Shown one piece after another: positions 22,937 to 61,345 of a stretch of 64,000 nucleotides of DNA (within the stretch, counting starts at the first letter, position 1; the number at the start of each line of letters is the position of its first letter). Made by a program: the position numbers and the translations under genes. The DNA comes from Candidatus Heimdallarchaeum endolithica (lineage in GTDB: Archaea > Asgardarchaeota > Heimdallarchaeia > Heimdallarchaeales > Heimdallarchaeaceae), in contig CP084167.1 of NCBI GenBank assembly GCA_021513715.1, positions 1,696,001 to 1,760,000 of the forward strand, in the 5' to 3' direction. The notes below the pieces were generated by a model, which had not been told where the DNA came from, searched no databases, and saw nothing but the letters and a program-made list of their open reading frames with translations.

Positions 22937-23094
22937 TTTTTAAATAAAAAGGAATGATGCTATTTGAGGACTAATGAGTATAGGTGAATTTGTTCCGAAC
23001 TTGCAGTAGCAACATTGTTTTACTTAGGAGTAGGAACAACACCTCAAAGAGTCTTTTTTTCTATGAGAAAAAATATGAGAAGGATGTGAAATAG
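22937..23094 (+). promoter_or_regulatory. proS leader: TATA, hairpin, Pro-sensing uORF and +1-frame coupling ORF
   Basis: TTTTTAAA at 22937-22944; stems TTTGAGG/CCTCAAA and TTGTTCC/GGAACAA; +1 frame open to TAG at 23092-23094, abutting the proS ATG. Confidence 0.75.
22974..23009 (+). CDS. Leader peptide MSIGEFVPNLQ
   Basis: ATG AGT ATA GGT GAA TTT GTT CCG AAC TTG CAG TAG; Pro codon at the same position as the cognate codon in the thrS and leuS leaders. Confidence 0.7.
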   Translation: MSIGEFVPNLQ

Positions 23095-35019: not shown

Positions 35020-35144
35020 TTTTCATCTTTTGAGGACAATGAATCCTGGTGAATATGAAACAATACAGTAAAATGCTTTCTTTTGGTTTAGTAGTTTATC
35101 TTTGTCCTCTTGGGAAAAAATGTTTTAAGGTGGAAAGATGGTAG
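35002..35144 (+). promoter_or_regulatory. thrS leader: TATA, hairpin, Thr-sensing uORF and +1-frame coupling ORF
   Basis: TTTTTTATA at 35002-35010; stem GAGGACAA (35032-35039) with TTGTCCTC (35102-35109); +1 frame open to TAG at 35142-35144, overlapping the thrS start. Confidence 0.75.
35039..35071 (+). CDS. Leader peptide MNPGEYETIQ
   Basis: ATG AAT CCT GGT GAA TAT GAA ACA ATA CAG TAA; Thr codon at the conserved position. Confidence 0.7.
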   Translation: MNPGEYETIQ

Positions 35145-51468: not shown

Positions 51469-52472
51469 AAGCATGTCCAAAAATTCTTTTTCACCAACTA
51501 AACGGTCCGAAGGAGTAAAAGGTAGTTGTAACAGAGAAGAGAACTGTACAAGGTAGAGAGAATGGTGGAGGGTAAACGATCAAGGATTGGGGGAAGAGAG
51601 AGTTTAAGGAGACCAAAGACGTGTTCAATACTACTACGATACTCGGGATGATGATTACGACGATACAGACCAGGGTAGAGACGATGAGCTTGAACTATTG
51701 GTCCGAGGGGAGGAGGAGAGGGATAACGAGCATTACTTTTTGGGGGAATAACAGGGAAAAAGGAATGTTGGCTAAGAAGTCCAACGATATTTTCTGTCCA
51801 GTAGGCACAGTCTCCATAAAATCGCAAGAAAGGTCTCAAGAGTGCAGAAGGAAGTTTCTGCCAGAGTAAACCGAAGACTTTACTATCGTGAGTGTTACTA
51901 GCAGAATGAGCGAGAGAGACTATAGCTCGAGAGGGTAAACCAACTATAAGGTGTATCTTCCAGAAAAGTTTAGAGGTTTTCTTTAGTGTCCCTCTTGACC
52001 ATTTGAGAAAACGCCAAACAGAAGCTTGACGGATTTTAAACCCTGAACTATCCACTGCCATAGCTTTCAAGCCTTTTTTCCTCACTATTTCCCTACCTAA
52101 ATCTATTATCCACTGCTCTAAGATTTTACTTTCTGTCGCTCTCCACACTGCATGAAAAGTAGATTTAGAAGGAATCTTCTTCATCCACCCCTCTTCTATC
52201 AAAAAATCGCATAAAGACAACTTTTCCTCTAACTTCCTCCAAGCTATCCCTTCTATTCTAGCAATGATTGCTAAAGCCAGTATCACCCATCTTTCTGCTA
52301 TTCTCTTTCTCCCTCTCTTGCTTTCTCTCGGTTCCTCTTTCACCAGTTTCTTAAGGAAAGGTTCATTAATGATTATGAATTCTCTTGCTTTGTGGGGGTC
52401 TATGATCTGAAAGAAATTCATACTTCCGACATAAACCCCCACATTAATAAAAATTAATTTTTGGACATGCTT
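51469..52472 (-). mobile_element. IS5/IS982-like DDE insertion sequence, intact copy
   Basis: 17-bp perfect TIR AAGCATGTCCAAAAATT; 6-bp TSD TATATT (51463-51468 and 52473-52478). Confidence 0.95.
51498..52442 (-). CDS. DDE transposase
   Basis: AVDSSG (D), GDCAY (D) and RSSIEHVF (E). Confidence 0.92.
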   Translation of the reverse strand: MGVYVGSMNFFQIIDPHKAREFIIINEPFLKKLVKEEPRESKRGRKRIAERWVILALAIIARIEGIAWRKLEEKLSLCDFLIEEGWMKKIPSKSTFHAVWRATESKILEQWIIDLGREIVRKKGLKAMAVDSSGFKIRQASVWRFLKWSRGTLKKTSKLFWKIHLIVGLPSRAIVSLAHSASNTHDSKVFGLLWQKLPSALLRPFLRFYGDCAYWTENIVGLLSQHSFFPVIPPKSNARYPSPPPLGPIVQAHRLYPGLYRRNHHPEYRSSIEHVFGLLKLSLPPILDRLPSTILSTLYSSLLCYNYLLLLRTV

Positions 52473-53382: not shown

Positions 53383-56319
53383 TTAAAGGAGTAAAATAGC
53401 TGGTTTCATAGGTCTTGCTTTACGGGCTTTATTTTGTGGGTCAAAAACATCTTTTGTATCAGAAATGTAAGTTTCAACTGTTATTTCAGGGTATTTTTTA
53501 TTGATTATTTTTATATACCCTTGAATTGCATTCAATTGTTCGTCTGGAGTTAGCATTGAGATTCTAAAGATTGTTGGATCTTTCATCATTAATTTTGCTT
53601 CATCTGCGATATTCTTCATATATTTATTTAATGTCTCATGGTTTTTCACTAGAGACATTATTTTGCCTATATTGAAAGCTTCCTCAGCGAATGAATCTTT
53701 GGCCAATTTATATAACTCATTTTTCCATTGTGGAGCTATATATATGATCATTTTTTTAGGTTCAGATTTAACTAATTTCATAACCTGTTCTATATCTTTC
53801 ATCAAATTAGTCAAGAATTTAAGTTGTAATGCAAGTTGTGTGTCTTCTTCTGTTAAAATTATGTCTTCTATTTTTTGTAAAGAAACAAAACCTGTATTCC
53901 CATACCGTTCATATATCTCTTCACAAATGTGAGGGATTACTGGTGCCATCAGTATTATCATGTTTTCAACAGTCTCTTTTATTACACTTTGAACCTCTTT
54001 CTCATTCGAGTTTGAAGATAATTTCAAGTAATTTTCTAGTTCTCGGATATTATCAAAGAACCCTGATAATATATAGTCTCTTGGATTAAATCGTTCCATT
54101 GCATCAATTGCCAACTTCATGTTACGTTTTACAGAAGCTAGAACAATCTTAGATATAAACGAATATGATTGTGGGTCAATTTTTTCACTCTTTTCAACCA
54201 TTATTGCAAATTCCCAAAACTTACGCAATTTTTCTTTAGAATGGTTAACTTCCACTTCTCTCCAGTCAACTACAGACTCTTGTGTTGCTATAGAAGCTAA
54301 ATGTAGGCGAGTTAAGTCAACACTATACTTCTCTGGGATTTTAGCTATTGGAATTACGTTTCCTTTGCTTTTTCCCATTTTTTCTCCTTCTCTATTTAAC
54401 ATTTCATTCAAAGAGAACATCTGAGGCCAATATTTTTCTTGGAAAATAGCTACATGATGGAAAATAGTAAAGGACAAATGATTGGAGATATGTGCAATTG
54501 CTGTATGTCGTAAATCATTGGGATACCAATACTCAAATTCACTTTTCATAGCATTTATAGTATCAACAGAGATACTTGTTTCTTTAGATACTGTTTCAAC
54601 ATCGTGGTTAGAGAGAAATATATGATCGAATAATATTGGTTTTAATTGTTCTGGTTTTATTTTAGATTCTTTAATTGTCTTAATAATTGTATAAAATGCC
54701 ATGTAAATAACAGAATCACTTAGTGATTCTATGATCCAGCCTTTTCCCTTTGTTATAGGAAATTCTGTTCCTAGCCCTCTCTTTCTCACACATGGACGCT
54801 TATCTAACCAATTGAACACATTCTCAAATGCTTGACGATATTTTTCAGGAACTATTTTCATATTGTTTAATGCTTTAAATGCAAGTTCTTTCCATTTTTT
54901 ATTTCCATAATTTAAGAAATATTGGTCTTCAATCACCGCAGCTATTATTTTTCCACCACACCTACATTTTGCTTTTGTTGAAACCTCATAGACATTTGAT
55001 GCTAAATTCAGTTCTTTGAGCTTTTTCGCCACAGCAACTTTTGCCTCCTCAACTTTTAAGCTATTAAATTCTCCTGTGTTGGATTTCATCACTCCAGAGT
55101 AAAACTCTTCTTTATATATTGTCTGTGTAGCTTTCTCCAATTTTTCTATATCTTCTTGACTCTGAACACCCATCTTTTCATATATTTCTACTGCAGGAAA
55201 CTCACCATACCCATCTAATTTAATTAAAGAGATTGGGATAATACTTTTTAGTTTACTTTCGTCCAAGGAATATTTCTTTATTAATTCTTCATTTTTTTGC
55301 AAATCTACCAAAGCCGCATAATCATAAGGCGCATGTCCTGGAACACTATATACTACTCCAGTTGCATGATCTGTATCAACAAATGTTGCAGGATAAATTG
55401 GAATAACAACTCCAGTTAACGGCACTTCAACTTCTTGGTCAAATAATTCTCTTCCCTTAAATTCTCTAGTTATCTCAATTTTATGATGTTGATTCTTTAG
55501 TTTACTTACAGCTTCAGATGATACTATCCAATTTTCATCATCTATTTTAATCTCACAATATTTATTTTCAGGATTTATCCAAACATTTGTTGCTCCAAAG
55601 ATAGTTTCAGGTCTGAAGGTAGCAGCAACCAAAAATGTGTTTTTGTTTTTTAATTTGAACTTAATTCCAACGAATTCAGAAACTTCTACTTTTGTTTCAT
55701 CTCCTGCATAAATATCATCCTCTCCAACAGCATTTTTACAGTTTGTACACCACAAAATAGGATATTCTCCTTTTGTTATGTATCCTTTTTCGTTAAGAAT
55801 TTTGTATTGCCATTCAATAAATTTGTTATATTCTGGATCACCTGTAGTAAATTCACGTGTATCATCTATTGAAAATCCCATTCTCTTAAAGTCTTCCATT
55901 AATTTTCCTGAAAAATACATAGCTACGTTCATCGGCTCTACAAATGAGCCAACAATTTCTTCTACTTTTTTTTCATCGGATTCGTAGATAGACACATAAT
56001 CTCGGTATTTTTTCCATTCTTTTTCATCTTTTTCTTTTATTTTTGCGGATACAGATAAAACAGGTGTTCCTGTAATATGATAAGCCATTGGCCACATCAC
56101 ATTAAATCCCCGTTGCCTTTTATAACGTGTAAATAGATCTCCAAGATTATATGTTCTACAATGCCCTATATGAAGAGTTCCGCTTGCATAGGGATAAGGT
56201 ACAGTAACAAAATACTTGGGTTTGGAATGGTCAACTTTACCTACAAATATTTTCTTTTCATCCCATCGTTTTTGCCATTTTGTTTCAATTTTACGTATTC
56301 CTTCTAAAAAACTAGCCAT
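53383..56319 (-). CDS. leuS: Leucyl-tRNA synthetase, archaeal type
   Basis: HIGH, ATFRPET (CP1) and KMGKSKGN motifs. Confidence 0.97.
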   Translation of the reverse strand: MASFLEGIRKIETKWQKRWDEKKIFVGKVDHSKPKYFVTVPYPYASGTLHIGHCRTYNLGDLFTRYKRQRGFNVMWPMAYHITGTPVLSVSAKIKEKDEKEWKKYRDYVSIYESDEKKVEEIVGSFVEPMNVAMYFSGKLMEDFKRMGFSIDDTREFTTGDPEYNKFIEWQYKILNEKGYITKGEYPILWCTNCKNAVGEDDIYAGDETKVEVSEFVGIKFKLKNKNTFLVAATFRPETIFGATNVWINPENKYCEIKIDDENWIVSSEAVSKLKNQHHKIEITREFKGRELFDQEVEVPLTGVVIPIYPATFVDTDHATGVVYSVPGHAPYDYAALVDLQKNEELIKKYSLDESKLKSIIPISLIKLDGYGEFPAVEIYEKMGVQSQEDIEKLEKATQTIYKEEFYSGVMKSNTGEFNSLKVEEAKVAVAKKLKELNLASNVYEVSTKAKCRCGGKIIAAVIEDQYFLNYGNKKWKELAFKALNNMKIVPEKYRQAFENVFNWLDKRPCVRKRGLGTEFPITKGKGWIIESLSDSVIYMAFYTIIKTIKESKIKPEQLKPILFDHIFLSNHDVETVSKETSISVDTINAMKSEFEYWYPNDLRHTAIAHISNHLSFTIFHHVAIFQEKYWPQMFSLNEMLNREGEKMGKSKGNVIPIAKIPEKYSVDLTRLHLASIATQESVVDWREVEVNHSKEKLRKFWEFAIMVEKSEKIDPQSYSFISKIVLASVKRNMKLAIDAMERFNPRDYILSGFFDNIRELENYLKLSSNSNEKEVQSVIKETVENMIILMAPVIPHICEEIYERYGNTGFVSLQKIEDIILTEEDTQLALQLKFLTNLMKDIEQVMKLVKSEPKKMIIYIAPQWKNELYKLAKDSFAEEAFNIGKIMSLVKNHETLNKYMKNIADEAKLMMKDPTIFRISMLTPDEQLNAIQGYIKIINKKYPEITVETYISDTKDVFDPQNKARKARPMKPAILLL

Positions 56320-56550
56320 TTTTACACCTCAATTCTGGAATAAAGAGCTTTTCTTTTCTATTGTAAATTACAGTTGCAATAAAACATGGTTCCATTATAA
56401 ATTTACTGTAAAAAGATTCTTTTCTAAAAATTCGGGAAACCTTATATCCAGTAACTATGTTAATAGAATAATTGTTTTCCAAGAAGAACATAGTCACCTT
56501 TCATCTTCTGGTCTCCTAAAAACAAAAAGGAGATATTAGTTAAAAAATTT
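56312..56550 (-). promoter_or_regulatory. leuS leader: TATA, hairpins, Leu-sensing uORF and +1-frame coupling ORF
   Basis: TTTTTTAA near 56547-56540; stems GGAGACC/GGTTTCC and GGTGACTATGTT/AACATAGTTACT; +1 frame (track ORF 56312..56497) ends in a TAG just past the leuS ATG. Confidence 0.75.
56460..56504 (-). CDS. Leader peptide MKGDYVLLGKQLFY
   Basis: ATG AAA GGT GAC TAT GTT CTT CTT GGA AAA CAA TTA TTC TAT TAA; tandem Leu codons at the conserved position. Confidence 0.7.
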   Translation of the reverse strand: MKGDYVLLGKQLFY

Positions 56551-56707: not shown

Positions 56708-56994
56708 GTGATTCTCAGGTTTTCTTTTCTTCTGATAACGATTTTCAATACAATACTTATTTTATTTTCTAAACAGAAAAAGAGAAGATTTACAAACTAA
56801 TAATCCTCTTTGTTTCTTTAGCACTTTCATTTTTGTTACATTGGAACTTTGTATTTATTTTTGCTTTATCAGTTTCTCTTTTGGCTATCCTTTGTCAAAA
56901 TTGCAATTCTCCAATTAAAGTATCTAACAAATTTTGTGATCATTGTGGCTTTAAAATAGAAAAACATAATGAAATCAAACCACTAAAAACATAA
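56708..56994 (+). pseudogene. Membrane plus double zinc-ribbon protein, frameshifted or truncated
   Basis: Frame 56773-56994 reads ...IILFVSLALSFLL...CQNCNSPIKVSNKFCDHCG... but is closed upstream by TAA at 56770. A hydrophobic GTG-started segment lies in another frame. Confidence 0.5.
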
Positions 56995-59893: not shown

Positions 59894-61345
59894 ATGATGG
59901 AGGACGTCGTCAAAACCTTGAAAGTGAGAATAAAGAAGGAGGTATTGACGACGAGGAAGAAGGAAAGGTTAAGGAGAATATCGGGGAGAGATACGAGGAT
60001 AATAGAAAAGTATGTGAGAATAATACATCATAACAGAAGAAAAATATGTACTAAAACTAAAAAAGGGAAAATAAGGGTACACAGAGGAAAACTAGATGAA
60101 CTGACGCTAACTACTTCAAAAGTTAAAGAAGAAGAGAGAAGAAAGACTGTTCCTCACGATTTCAAGAAAATGTTCCCTTATTGTTCCCACAATGAATTCC
60201 AAGAGTGTAGAGATATAGCCGTACAATTATATGAGCAAGGGTATAGACCCCGTTCTACTCGTCCTCCAATAAAGAGAGCAAGAAGACAACTAATTAATGC
60301 AAAGAGGTTCATCCTTGTCCATTTACCTAAAGAGAAGAAGAATACTCTCACTCGTTGGTGGGTGGGGATAAGAGACTCGTTAGATACGTGGAGAAGAAAC
60401 ACCCCTTATCATCAGAAACTATGGTTACCTTTAGAGATGAGCACTTTCCACCAGAAGGAATTAAAGAAAGGGCGAATAAAAAGTCTAGAACTAAGATATA
60501 AACGTTCTACACGTGAGTGGTGGGTGTATTTCCAATTAAAAGTTCTTCCTTCTTCTTTTTATCCTCCTGAAGAAAAAAGTTCTTCTTCTCTTCCCCCAGC
60601 TGTGCTGGGAATAGATCTAGGGATAAACATTCCTGCTGCAGGAGTGTTACTGACCCCTAAAAAGAAATTAACAAACAAAGAAATAAAATTCTGGCATACC
60701 AAACAGTGGAATAGAGTCAATCATCGATATAAACTCAAACTTTCCCGTCTTCAGAGGAAAGCGGCTTTAAATGACCAGTCGGGTAAAAAACACCATATTT
60801 ACCGTTTTCTCGGTCTTCTCCGAAGAAGATATAGAAACGTTAAACGAGCTTATAATCACCAATTTATAAGTGAGGTTATGCAGACGATAGAGACTTATGC
60901 ACAAGTGTATGACCTTTTTGTCGTTGTAGGTTACCCTAAACATGTTCGCGAGGAGAAAGGAAAAGATAAAAGTACTCATAATTTTCGTAGAAAACTTCAC
61001 CAGTGGAATTTTTCTTTAGTTCTTACTCTTCTCCGTTGGGCATTGATATTAAGCGGTTTTGAACCTCACCGAATATTAACCGTGGAGGAAAGAGGGACAT
61101 CTTCTCACTGTGCTCGTTGTGGAAGGAAAGTTATCCGTCCCGTTAGAGGTTTAGTCCATTGCCCCTCTTGTGGTTATACTTTCCACTCTGACCTCACAGG
61201 AGCAATGAATATCGCTCGTAAATTCCTCGGGGCTCTTTTCCGTCCTCGAGGAACAACTATCACTGATTACCTCACTGGTCAAAGATACAGTTCTACTCAT
61301 TTCACTGTTTGCCTAGGGCTCAGCCATTGGTTGCAGTCCCAGTAG
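59894..61345 (+). CDS. tnpB: TnpB-family RNA-guided nuclease
   Basis: RuvC-I LGIDLG, VVGYP at the RuvC-II site with E in VEERGTS, zinc finger CARC/CPSC and RuvC-III HSDLTGAMNIA. Confidence 0.9.
   Translation: MMEDVVKTLKVRIKKEVLTTRKKERLRRISGRDTRIIEKYVRIIHHNRRKICTKTKKGKIRVHRGKLDELTLTTSKVKEEERRKTVPHDFKKMFPYCSHNEFQECRDIAVQLYEQGYRPRSTRPPIKRARRQLINAKRFILVHLPKEKKNTLTRWWVGIRDSLDTWRRNTPYHQKLWLPLEMSTFHQKELKKGRIKSLELRYKRSTREWWVYFQLKVLPSSFYPPEEKSSSSLPPAVLGIDLGINIPAAGVLLTPKKKLTNKEIKFWHTKQWNRVNHRYKLKLSRLQRKAALNDQSGKKHHIYRFLGLLRRRYRNVKRAYNHQFISEVMQTIETYAQVYDLFVVVGYPKHVREEKGKDKSTHNFRRKLHQWNFSLVLTLLRWALILSGFEPHRILTVEERGTSSHCARCGRKVIRPVRGLVHCPSCGYTFHSDLTGAMNIARKFLGALFRPRGTTITDYLTGQRYSSTHFTVCLGLSHWLQSQ

Follow-up and report, generated by a model that had tools for sequence, protein, structure and literature searches.

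Why should an open reading frame run through the leader of a synthetase gene and stop on top of that gene's start codon? The question is raised by leuS of Candidatus Heimdallarchaeum endolithica, which lies in the 64,000-nucleotide stretch analyzed here (the window) from this archaeon's closed genome (3.33 Mb, 30.8% GC). The gene (53383..56319, minus strand, ATG at 56319) encodes an archaeal-type leucyl-tRNA synthetase of 978 amino acids that, over its first 300 residues, is 95% identical to LeuRS of the sister species Ca. Heimdallarchaeum aukensis PM71.

Organization of the leuS leader

All features of the leader lie on the minus strand. The sequence places a Shine-Dalgarno (SD) element, GAGGUG (56325..56330), ahead of leuS, and farther upstream lies a putative sensor uORF of 14 codons (56460..56504; MKGDYVLLGKQLFY) that contains GGU GAC UAU GUU CUU CUU. 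The SD of this uORF, AGGAG (56510..56517), is conserved in alignment A1, matches the 3' end of the 16S rRNA of the same genome (GGAUCACCUCCU) and also serves as the 5' arm (GGAGACC) of a helix, P1. Within the uORF, an SD-like hexamer, AGGUGA (56494..56499), stands 4 nt before the slipping codon of a predicted +1 shift site, GUU-CUU(-CUU) (56481..56489), at which the P-site NUU would re-pair on UUC with a Leu CUN codon in the A site. From the shift site a Leu-poor +1 frame with an unconserved peptide stays open (56312..56488) as far as a TAG at 56314-56312, 5 nt beyond the leuS ATG. The ORF at 56497-56312 is the +1 frame of the uORF, its upstream limit being a TGA inside the uORF start. A preliminary description, made without database searches, had claimed this uORF with its codon string, the identity of the ORF with the +1 frame and an end over the leuS ATG, and all three claims held.

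A TATA-like box identified from the sequence (56539..56547) lies approximately 42 nt upstream of the uORF start; such a motif occurs 40-44 nt upstream in 31 of 74 leuS leaders and was not found in 26, and its position would put the uORF first on the transcript. A mobile element or repeat was rejected as the nature of the leader, as no second copy was found in the genome. A known RNA family was likewise rejected for lack of an Rfam match, the covariance models (T-box and other leaders) giving a best E of 3.2 and scores all far below gathering. The divergent intergenic region also holds a 53-aa ORF with a CxxC...CxxC zinc-ribbon pattern (56833-56994, plus strand), and the flanks contain, judging from translations only, a transposase-like ORF (51498-52442, minus strand) and a TnpB/Cas12f-like ORF (59894-61345, plus strand).

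Distribution of the cassette

We collected leuS loci from relatives, named genomes, metagenomes and a phylum sample, and defined the cassette as an SD, a start codon, 2-6 codons, NTT-CTN and an early stop, without use of the +1 frame; the patterns themselves were derived from the first loci seen. Of 115 Asgard loci for which upstream DNA was available, 89 carry the cassette. Its carriers include Heimdallarchaeia, Hodarchaeales, Thorarchaeia, some Lokiarchaeia and several unnamed families, among them the cultured MK-D1 (uORF MGEYFLVKI) and Loki-B35 (MSDHFLQNKQV). The genomes are related and not independent, and pooled counts therefore overstate the evidence. No cassette was found in the sampled families f7/Odin, f11, f13, f19, f20, f22 and f23, nor in three family members in which the upstream gene abuts leuS. 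At L010, L014 and L021 an upstream gene replaces the 5' part of the leader while the 3' part is kept; at L016 the uORF is missing through a deletion between two GATATCTG repeats, which may be a loss or an assembly collapse. Among the non-Asgard leuS loci examined there were isolated matches only, such as L149 (Micrarchaeota) and L169 (Bathyarchaeia), whose leaders carry a similar NUU-CUC uORF; the +1 frame of L149 ends at +7.

The +1 frame is kept open while its peptide drifts

For the window leader alone, an open frame of such length arises in 0.5% of dinucleotide shuffles; the strong evidence for openness comes from the relatives. Between the uORF stop and the leuS start, the 89 cassettes contain only 11 stops in 3,664 codons of the +1 frame, compared with 364 and 241 stops in the other frames. 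When leaders were thinned to less than 70% identity, the +1 frame was open in 41 of 49 against 5.5 expected; most of the apparent exceptions either stop 9-16 nt ahead of the start or have a wrongly chosen start, and two resemble chance cassettes. In 19 close pairs (one sequence serves twice, and three fall short by 9-10 nt) the frame stays open, against 6.7 expected when each pair's own substitutions are placed at random, and dN/dS in these pairs is 0.78 for the +1 frame versus 0.10 for LeuRS. Few stops combined with a high dN/dS among relatives indicate that the frame is kept open and that its peptide is largely free.

These comparisons support the earlier proposal of selection for openness, and the two checks suggested with it, on indels and on independent initiation, also came out in its favor. 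Leader indels between close pairs are rare and are multiples of three, one offsetting single-base pair, or within about 30 nt of the leuS start, and most leuS leaders lack an SD-led start of their own within the +1 frame.

The codon content of the frame is similarly skewed. Leu codons number 118 in leuS +1 frames against 228 expected (CUN, 42 against 116), while the leaders of other synthetases contain 278 against 289 expected. Such a Leu deficit is expected if selection favors ribosome passage when Leu is short, and it does not depend on the cassette definition. A -1/+2 shift was rejected, as the corresponding frame is closed (open in 4 of 89). A LeuRS fusion was also rejected, since the reading frame does not permit it: the +1 frame is out of frame with the main gene, or closed before it, in all but one of approximately 170 cassettes.

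The shift site and its internal SD

The Leu codon is always CUN and is almost always preceded by NUU (GUU most commonly, also UUU and AUU); the uORF stop follows 1-10 codons after the A-site Leu codon. A second Leu codon follows in only 40 of 86 leaders. What the leaders share is NUU-CUN, containing one Leu codon, and the tandem Leu sensor of the preliminary description failed as a conserved feature. A slip of the peptidyl-tRNA from NUU to UUC yields the open frame. An amino-acid-blind rule returned Leu in 54 of 60 leuS calls.

The internal SD also stands out: all 32 distinct leuS cassettes have better anti-SD pairing than 90% of in-gene NTT-CTN contexts, with a median of -7.2 kcal/mol versus -0.9 kcal/mol for the same codon pairs within genes, and the element was found in all six cassette types. 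Two observations count against the proposed slip. The spacing of the internal SD to the site varies from 3 to 5 nt, in two registers, and the re-pairing of GUU to UUC entails a first-position mismatch, unlike the case in prfB.

Folding of the leader

A 12-bp inner hairpin lies over the uORF (56450..56498; arms 56498-56487 and 56461-56450), and its counterparts are 80-82% paired in 19 family leaders. The 3' arm of helix P1, GGUUUCC (56435..56441), pairs with the uORF SD and is followed by a U-rich stretch; in the same 19 leaders 94% of P1 cells are paired and two pairs are changed on both sides, although covariation does not exceed that of shuffles and two Heimdallarchaeum rows of alignment A1 are misaligned at the 3' arm. 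A second long hairpin folds in the spacer (56368..56411), and ACAG/CUGU stems resembling it appear in the folds of L006, L015 and L018. Both hairpins had been noted earlier and both occur in the minimum-energy fold, but the predicted stability of the leader in its entirety is only modestly above that of shuffled sequences (z -1.7, 12 of 200). Helix P1 may conceivably restrict the uORF to the first round of translation, an inference that we regard as no more than a possibility.

Where the +1 frame ends

Measured from the main start, the +1 stop falls between -16 and +32 nt in 145 of 156 leaders. There are 26 NUGA overlaps, 31 stops at +5 and a single in-frame fusion. In nearly all leaders the frame extends across the leuS SD, and many overlaps measure 14-32 nt; in 35 leaders the frame ends before the start codon. 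Such stop-start spacing is where translational coupling works, Haloferax included (PMC12548453).

The main SD is not conserved as a paired element: its predicted pairing is 0.63 versus 0.67 in shuffles, and 0.65 versus 0.69 with a ribosome on the uORF, and simple unfolding of the ermC type is therefore unsupported. Transcription termination offers another possible output. The genome encodes FttA/aCPSF1, a factor that prefers U-rich RNA and is hypothesized to police coupling (PMC11616081), and the spacer is mildly U-rich (36% U, approximately three U4 runs per leuS leader, without a control comparison). No bacterial-type terminator was found in a scan that does not model archaeal U-tract terminators. 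Output may proceed by reinitiation, by protection from termination or by both.

Sister leaders before other synthetase genes

Scanning the whole genome and surveying its full set of synthetase genes revealed the same layout before thrS (GAA-ACA), proS (GUU-CCG), ileS (GAA-AUU), metS (AAA-AUG), trpS (ACU-UGG) and also pheS, which refines the initial view of the leuS leader by making it one of a family. Two of these elements lie on the plus strand of the window. The thrS element (35039..35144) has the uORF MNPGEYETIQ (35039-35071) and a +1 frame that closes over the thrS start (35138), with its stop codon at 35142-35144; the proS element (22974..23094) has the uORF MSIGEFVPNLQ (22974-23009) and a +1 frame that stops at 23092-23094, directly before the proS ATG (23095). 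Elsewhere in the genome are the cassettes of ileS (G000 C1 1827538, minus strand; MDREIH; L196), metS (G000 C1 2445906, plus strand; VDDSGDRKMLV; L197) and trpS (G000 C1 2004929, minus strand; VVTWVG...; L200).

Among relatives the +1 frame reaches the main start for thrS in 11 of 11, proS in 13 of 14, metS in 22 of 27, ileS in 12 of 13 and pheS in 16 of 17 leaders. Each synthetase's own codon is depleted in its own +1 frames, clearly for Thr (1 observed, 7 expected), Met (3, 14) and Ile (8, 18) and less clearly for Pro (7, 13). The amino-acid-blind rule returned the cognate residue for thrS in 12 of 12, ileS in 12 of 13 and trpS in 5 of 7 calls, and was weaker for proS (7 of 15) and metS (2 of 9), where an earlier uORF pair was picked or the cassette missed. 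The loose genome-wide rule also matches approximately 15 unrelated genes, probably by chance.

Two sets of leaders fit the pattern poorly. The metS +1 frames of L301 (H. aukensis), L302, L303 and L305 end 23-92 nt short of the start, for which decay, a looser requirement or a different output are possible explanations. In the pheS leaders (G000 C1 1562364, plus strand; L198/L360-L385) the pair conserved in the SD register is CCU/ACU-UGG (Trp), with AAU-UUY (Phe) two codons after it in most and UUA instead in five. A trpS gene behind pheS was rejected as the cause, the next gene being pheT-like with no trpS match in the flank examined; conceivably this leader senses Trp, or both Trp and Phe.

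No valS cassette was found in the genome and few in the phylum sample; at valS loci L428, L429 and L440 the uORFs end in WRCSKVS/WRCCKVNC, the +1 frame is open and AAR-GUN may be a Val pair. A possible lysS cassette, judged from this genome's sequence alone (G000 C1 ~2869442, plus strand; L199; MFPKDNKS, CCC-AAA), has a +1 frame that ends as AUGA, only 54 nt upstream. The genome also has a second gene in each of the Glu/Gln and Asp/Asn synthetase families (G000 C1 1224200-1226800 and 211000-212900; L213 and L205), suggesting GlnRS- and AsnRS-like genes in this archaeon.

Proposed mechanism

Cassette, conservation, open frame, codon bias and stop position are established from the sequence, and on comparative evidence only the element is real, conserved and specific. 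The reading that we infer from them, likely at a probability of roughly 0.8, is that the leader senses charged tRNA-Leu via a programmed +1 frameshift that activates leuS. A ribosome would start at the uORF and, with ample Leu-tRNA, would read CUN in frame and stop a few codons later, leaving approximately 140 nt of leader untranslated and allowing helix P1 to close over the uORF SD. With Leu-tRNA scarce, the A site would stand empty and the internal SD and the NUU P-site codon would let the peptidyl-tRNA slip to UUC; the slipped ribosome would then cross the stop-free, Leu-poor +1 frame and terminate atop the leuS start. LeuRS synthesis would be raised by termination-reinitiation, or alternatively or additionally by a ribosome kept on the nascent RNA, so that FttA/aCPSF1 could not end transcription in the leader. 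Ribosome shifting, its increase on starvation, activation and the output step are all inferred, with no reporter or ribosome-profiling data; the frameshift and Leu response proposed in the preliminary description are thus supported without a measured frameshift.

Alternative explanations

In classical leader-peptide attenuation, the ribosome would merely stall at the Leu codon and block P1, transcription would continue and the +1 frame would be incidental. The leaders do have a uORF with a cognate codon, as well as helix P1 and a U-rich stretch, but attenuation leaves unexplained the missing stops, the Leu depletion, the +1 stop position, the conserved NUU codon and the internal SD; moreover, the majority of leaders contain a single Leu codon, and no bacterial-type terminator was found in the scan, which does not model archaeal U-tracts. 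We consider this account very unlikely. No more plausible is the view that frameshifting is real but represses, +1 ribosomes covering the leuS SD and start and blocking initiation in the manner of eukaryotic overlapping uORFs. The passage of the frame over the SD, the common 14-32 nt overlaps and the finding that longer overlaps couple less well (PMC12548453) speak for it. Against it, stops cluster at NUGA, at +5 and just before the start, all coupling geometries, and in 35 leaders the frame closes ahead of the start codon. Bacterial synthetase regulators induce on uncharged tRNA, which also counts against repression.

Shifting at a fixed ratio could set no more than a basal synthetase level, and Ty1-type +1 sites with a slow sense codon do work at a set rate (PMC5009743). 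A fixed ratio, however, requires neither a codon matched to the amino acid of each synthetase nor a scarcity of such codons farther along, and we give this explanation very little weight. It is also very unlikely that the +1 ORF simply encodes a small protein, translated from a start of its own (GTG 56497 or ATG 56491) and overlapping leuS in operon style. Such start codons exist in the window leader and dN/dS is slightly below 1, but in 59 of 72 leuS leaders the 5' half of the +1 frame lacks an SD-led start, 26 leaders have no ATG or GTG in it at all, lengths range over 28-70 codons with sequences that differ between families, and the +1 ORF has no Pfam match. On dN/dS, missing starts and the absent Pfam match, a real small protein was rejected.

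Relation to known systems

The likeness drawn in the preliminary description to prfB, the gene of bacterial release factor 2 with its autoregulatory +1 frameshift, held with refinement. Both systems have a short zero-frame ORF, an internal SD near a slippery P-site codon, a slow A-site sensor codon and a +1 direction (PMC5009743); in bacterial +1 shifting the SD-like element lies 3 nt from the site (PMC5009743). In most cases it is the codon preceding Leu (GUU, UUU, AUU) that corresponds to the slipping CUU of prfB, and the Leu codon takes the role of UGA. Whereas prfB has UGA in the A site, the Asgard leaders have a sense codon for the synthetase's own amino acid; the prfB P site is CUU_U (rarely UUU_U), while that of the Asgard leaders is mostly GUU_C, also UUU_C and AUU_C, CUU_C being possible only where a second CUN follows. 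Furthermore, the +1 frame of prfB encodes the product, while the archaeal one is a disposable spacer ending at the gene start.

At the effector end the leaders resemble ermCL, in which a shift in the leader ORF carries ribosomes over a spacer and turns on the downstream gene (PMC5009743). However, ermCL is triggered by an antibiotic (ketolide) and unfolds structure over the ermC start, and the Asgard leaders have no conserved sequestration of the main SD. Bacterial attenuators (leuL, thrL, pheM-pheST, pheL) similarly sense charged tRNA through a cognate-codon uORF before amino-acid genes, but they use codon runs, stalling and terminator/antiterminator hairpins, and most Asgard leaders have no Leu run; frameshifting in pheL was judged incidental (PMC5009743). 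Ty1 and ABP140 (CUU_AGG_C) share the +1 slip from a slowly decoded sense codon but are eukaryotic, work at a set ratio without an SD and yield a fusion protein. The fucA1 gene of Saccharolobus solfataricus, the only reported archaeal programmed frameshift according to a 2021 review (PMC8211752), shifts in the -1 direction inside the gene. The Asgard leader is prfB-like at its sensor and ermCL-like at its effector, and belongs with neither of these nor with the classical attenuators.

Implications for Asgard archaea

How archaea match synthetase levels to tRNA charging has been little described, and a 2016 review knew of no example of starvation-specific products from hungry-codon shifting (PMC5009743). 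In the open-access literature searched, which leaves out most subscription papers, we found no description of such leaders, of hungry-codon frameshifting used as a natural amino-acid sensor or of regulatory +1 frameshifting in archaea. A bolder reading, which we also consider likely, is that the leaders form a phylum-wide class providing gene-specific feedback on aminoacyl-tRNA synthetases in Asgard archaea. If true, one modular cassette, its sensor codon swapped to fit each synthetase, would do for these archaea what T-boxes and attenuators do for bacteria, and would represent natural, selected hungry-codon frameshifting as an amino-acid sensor together with regulatory +1 frameshifting in archaea.
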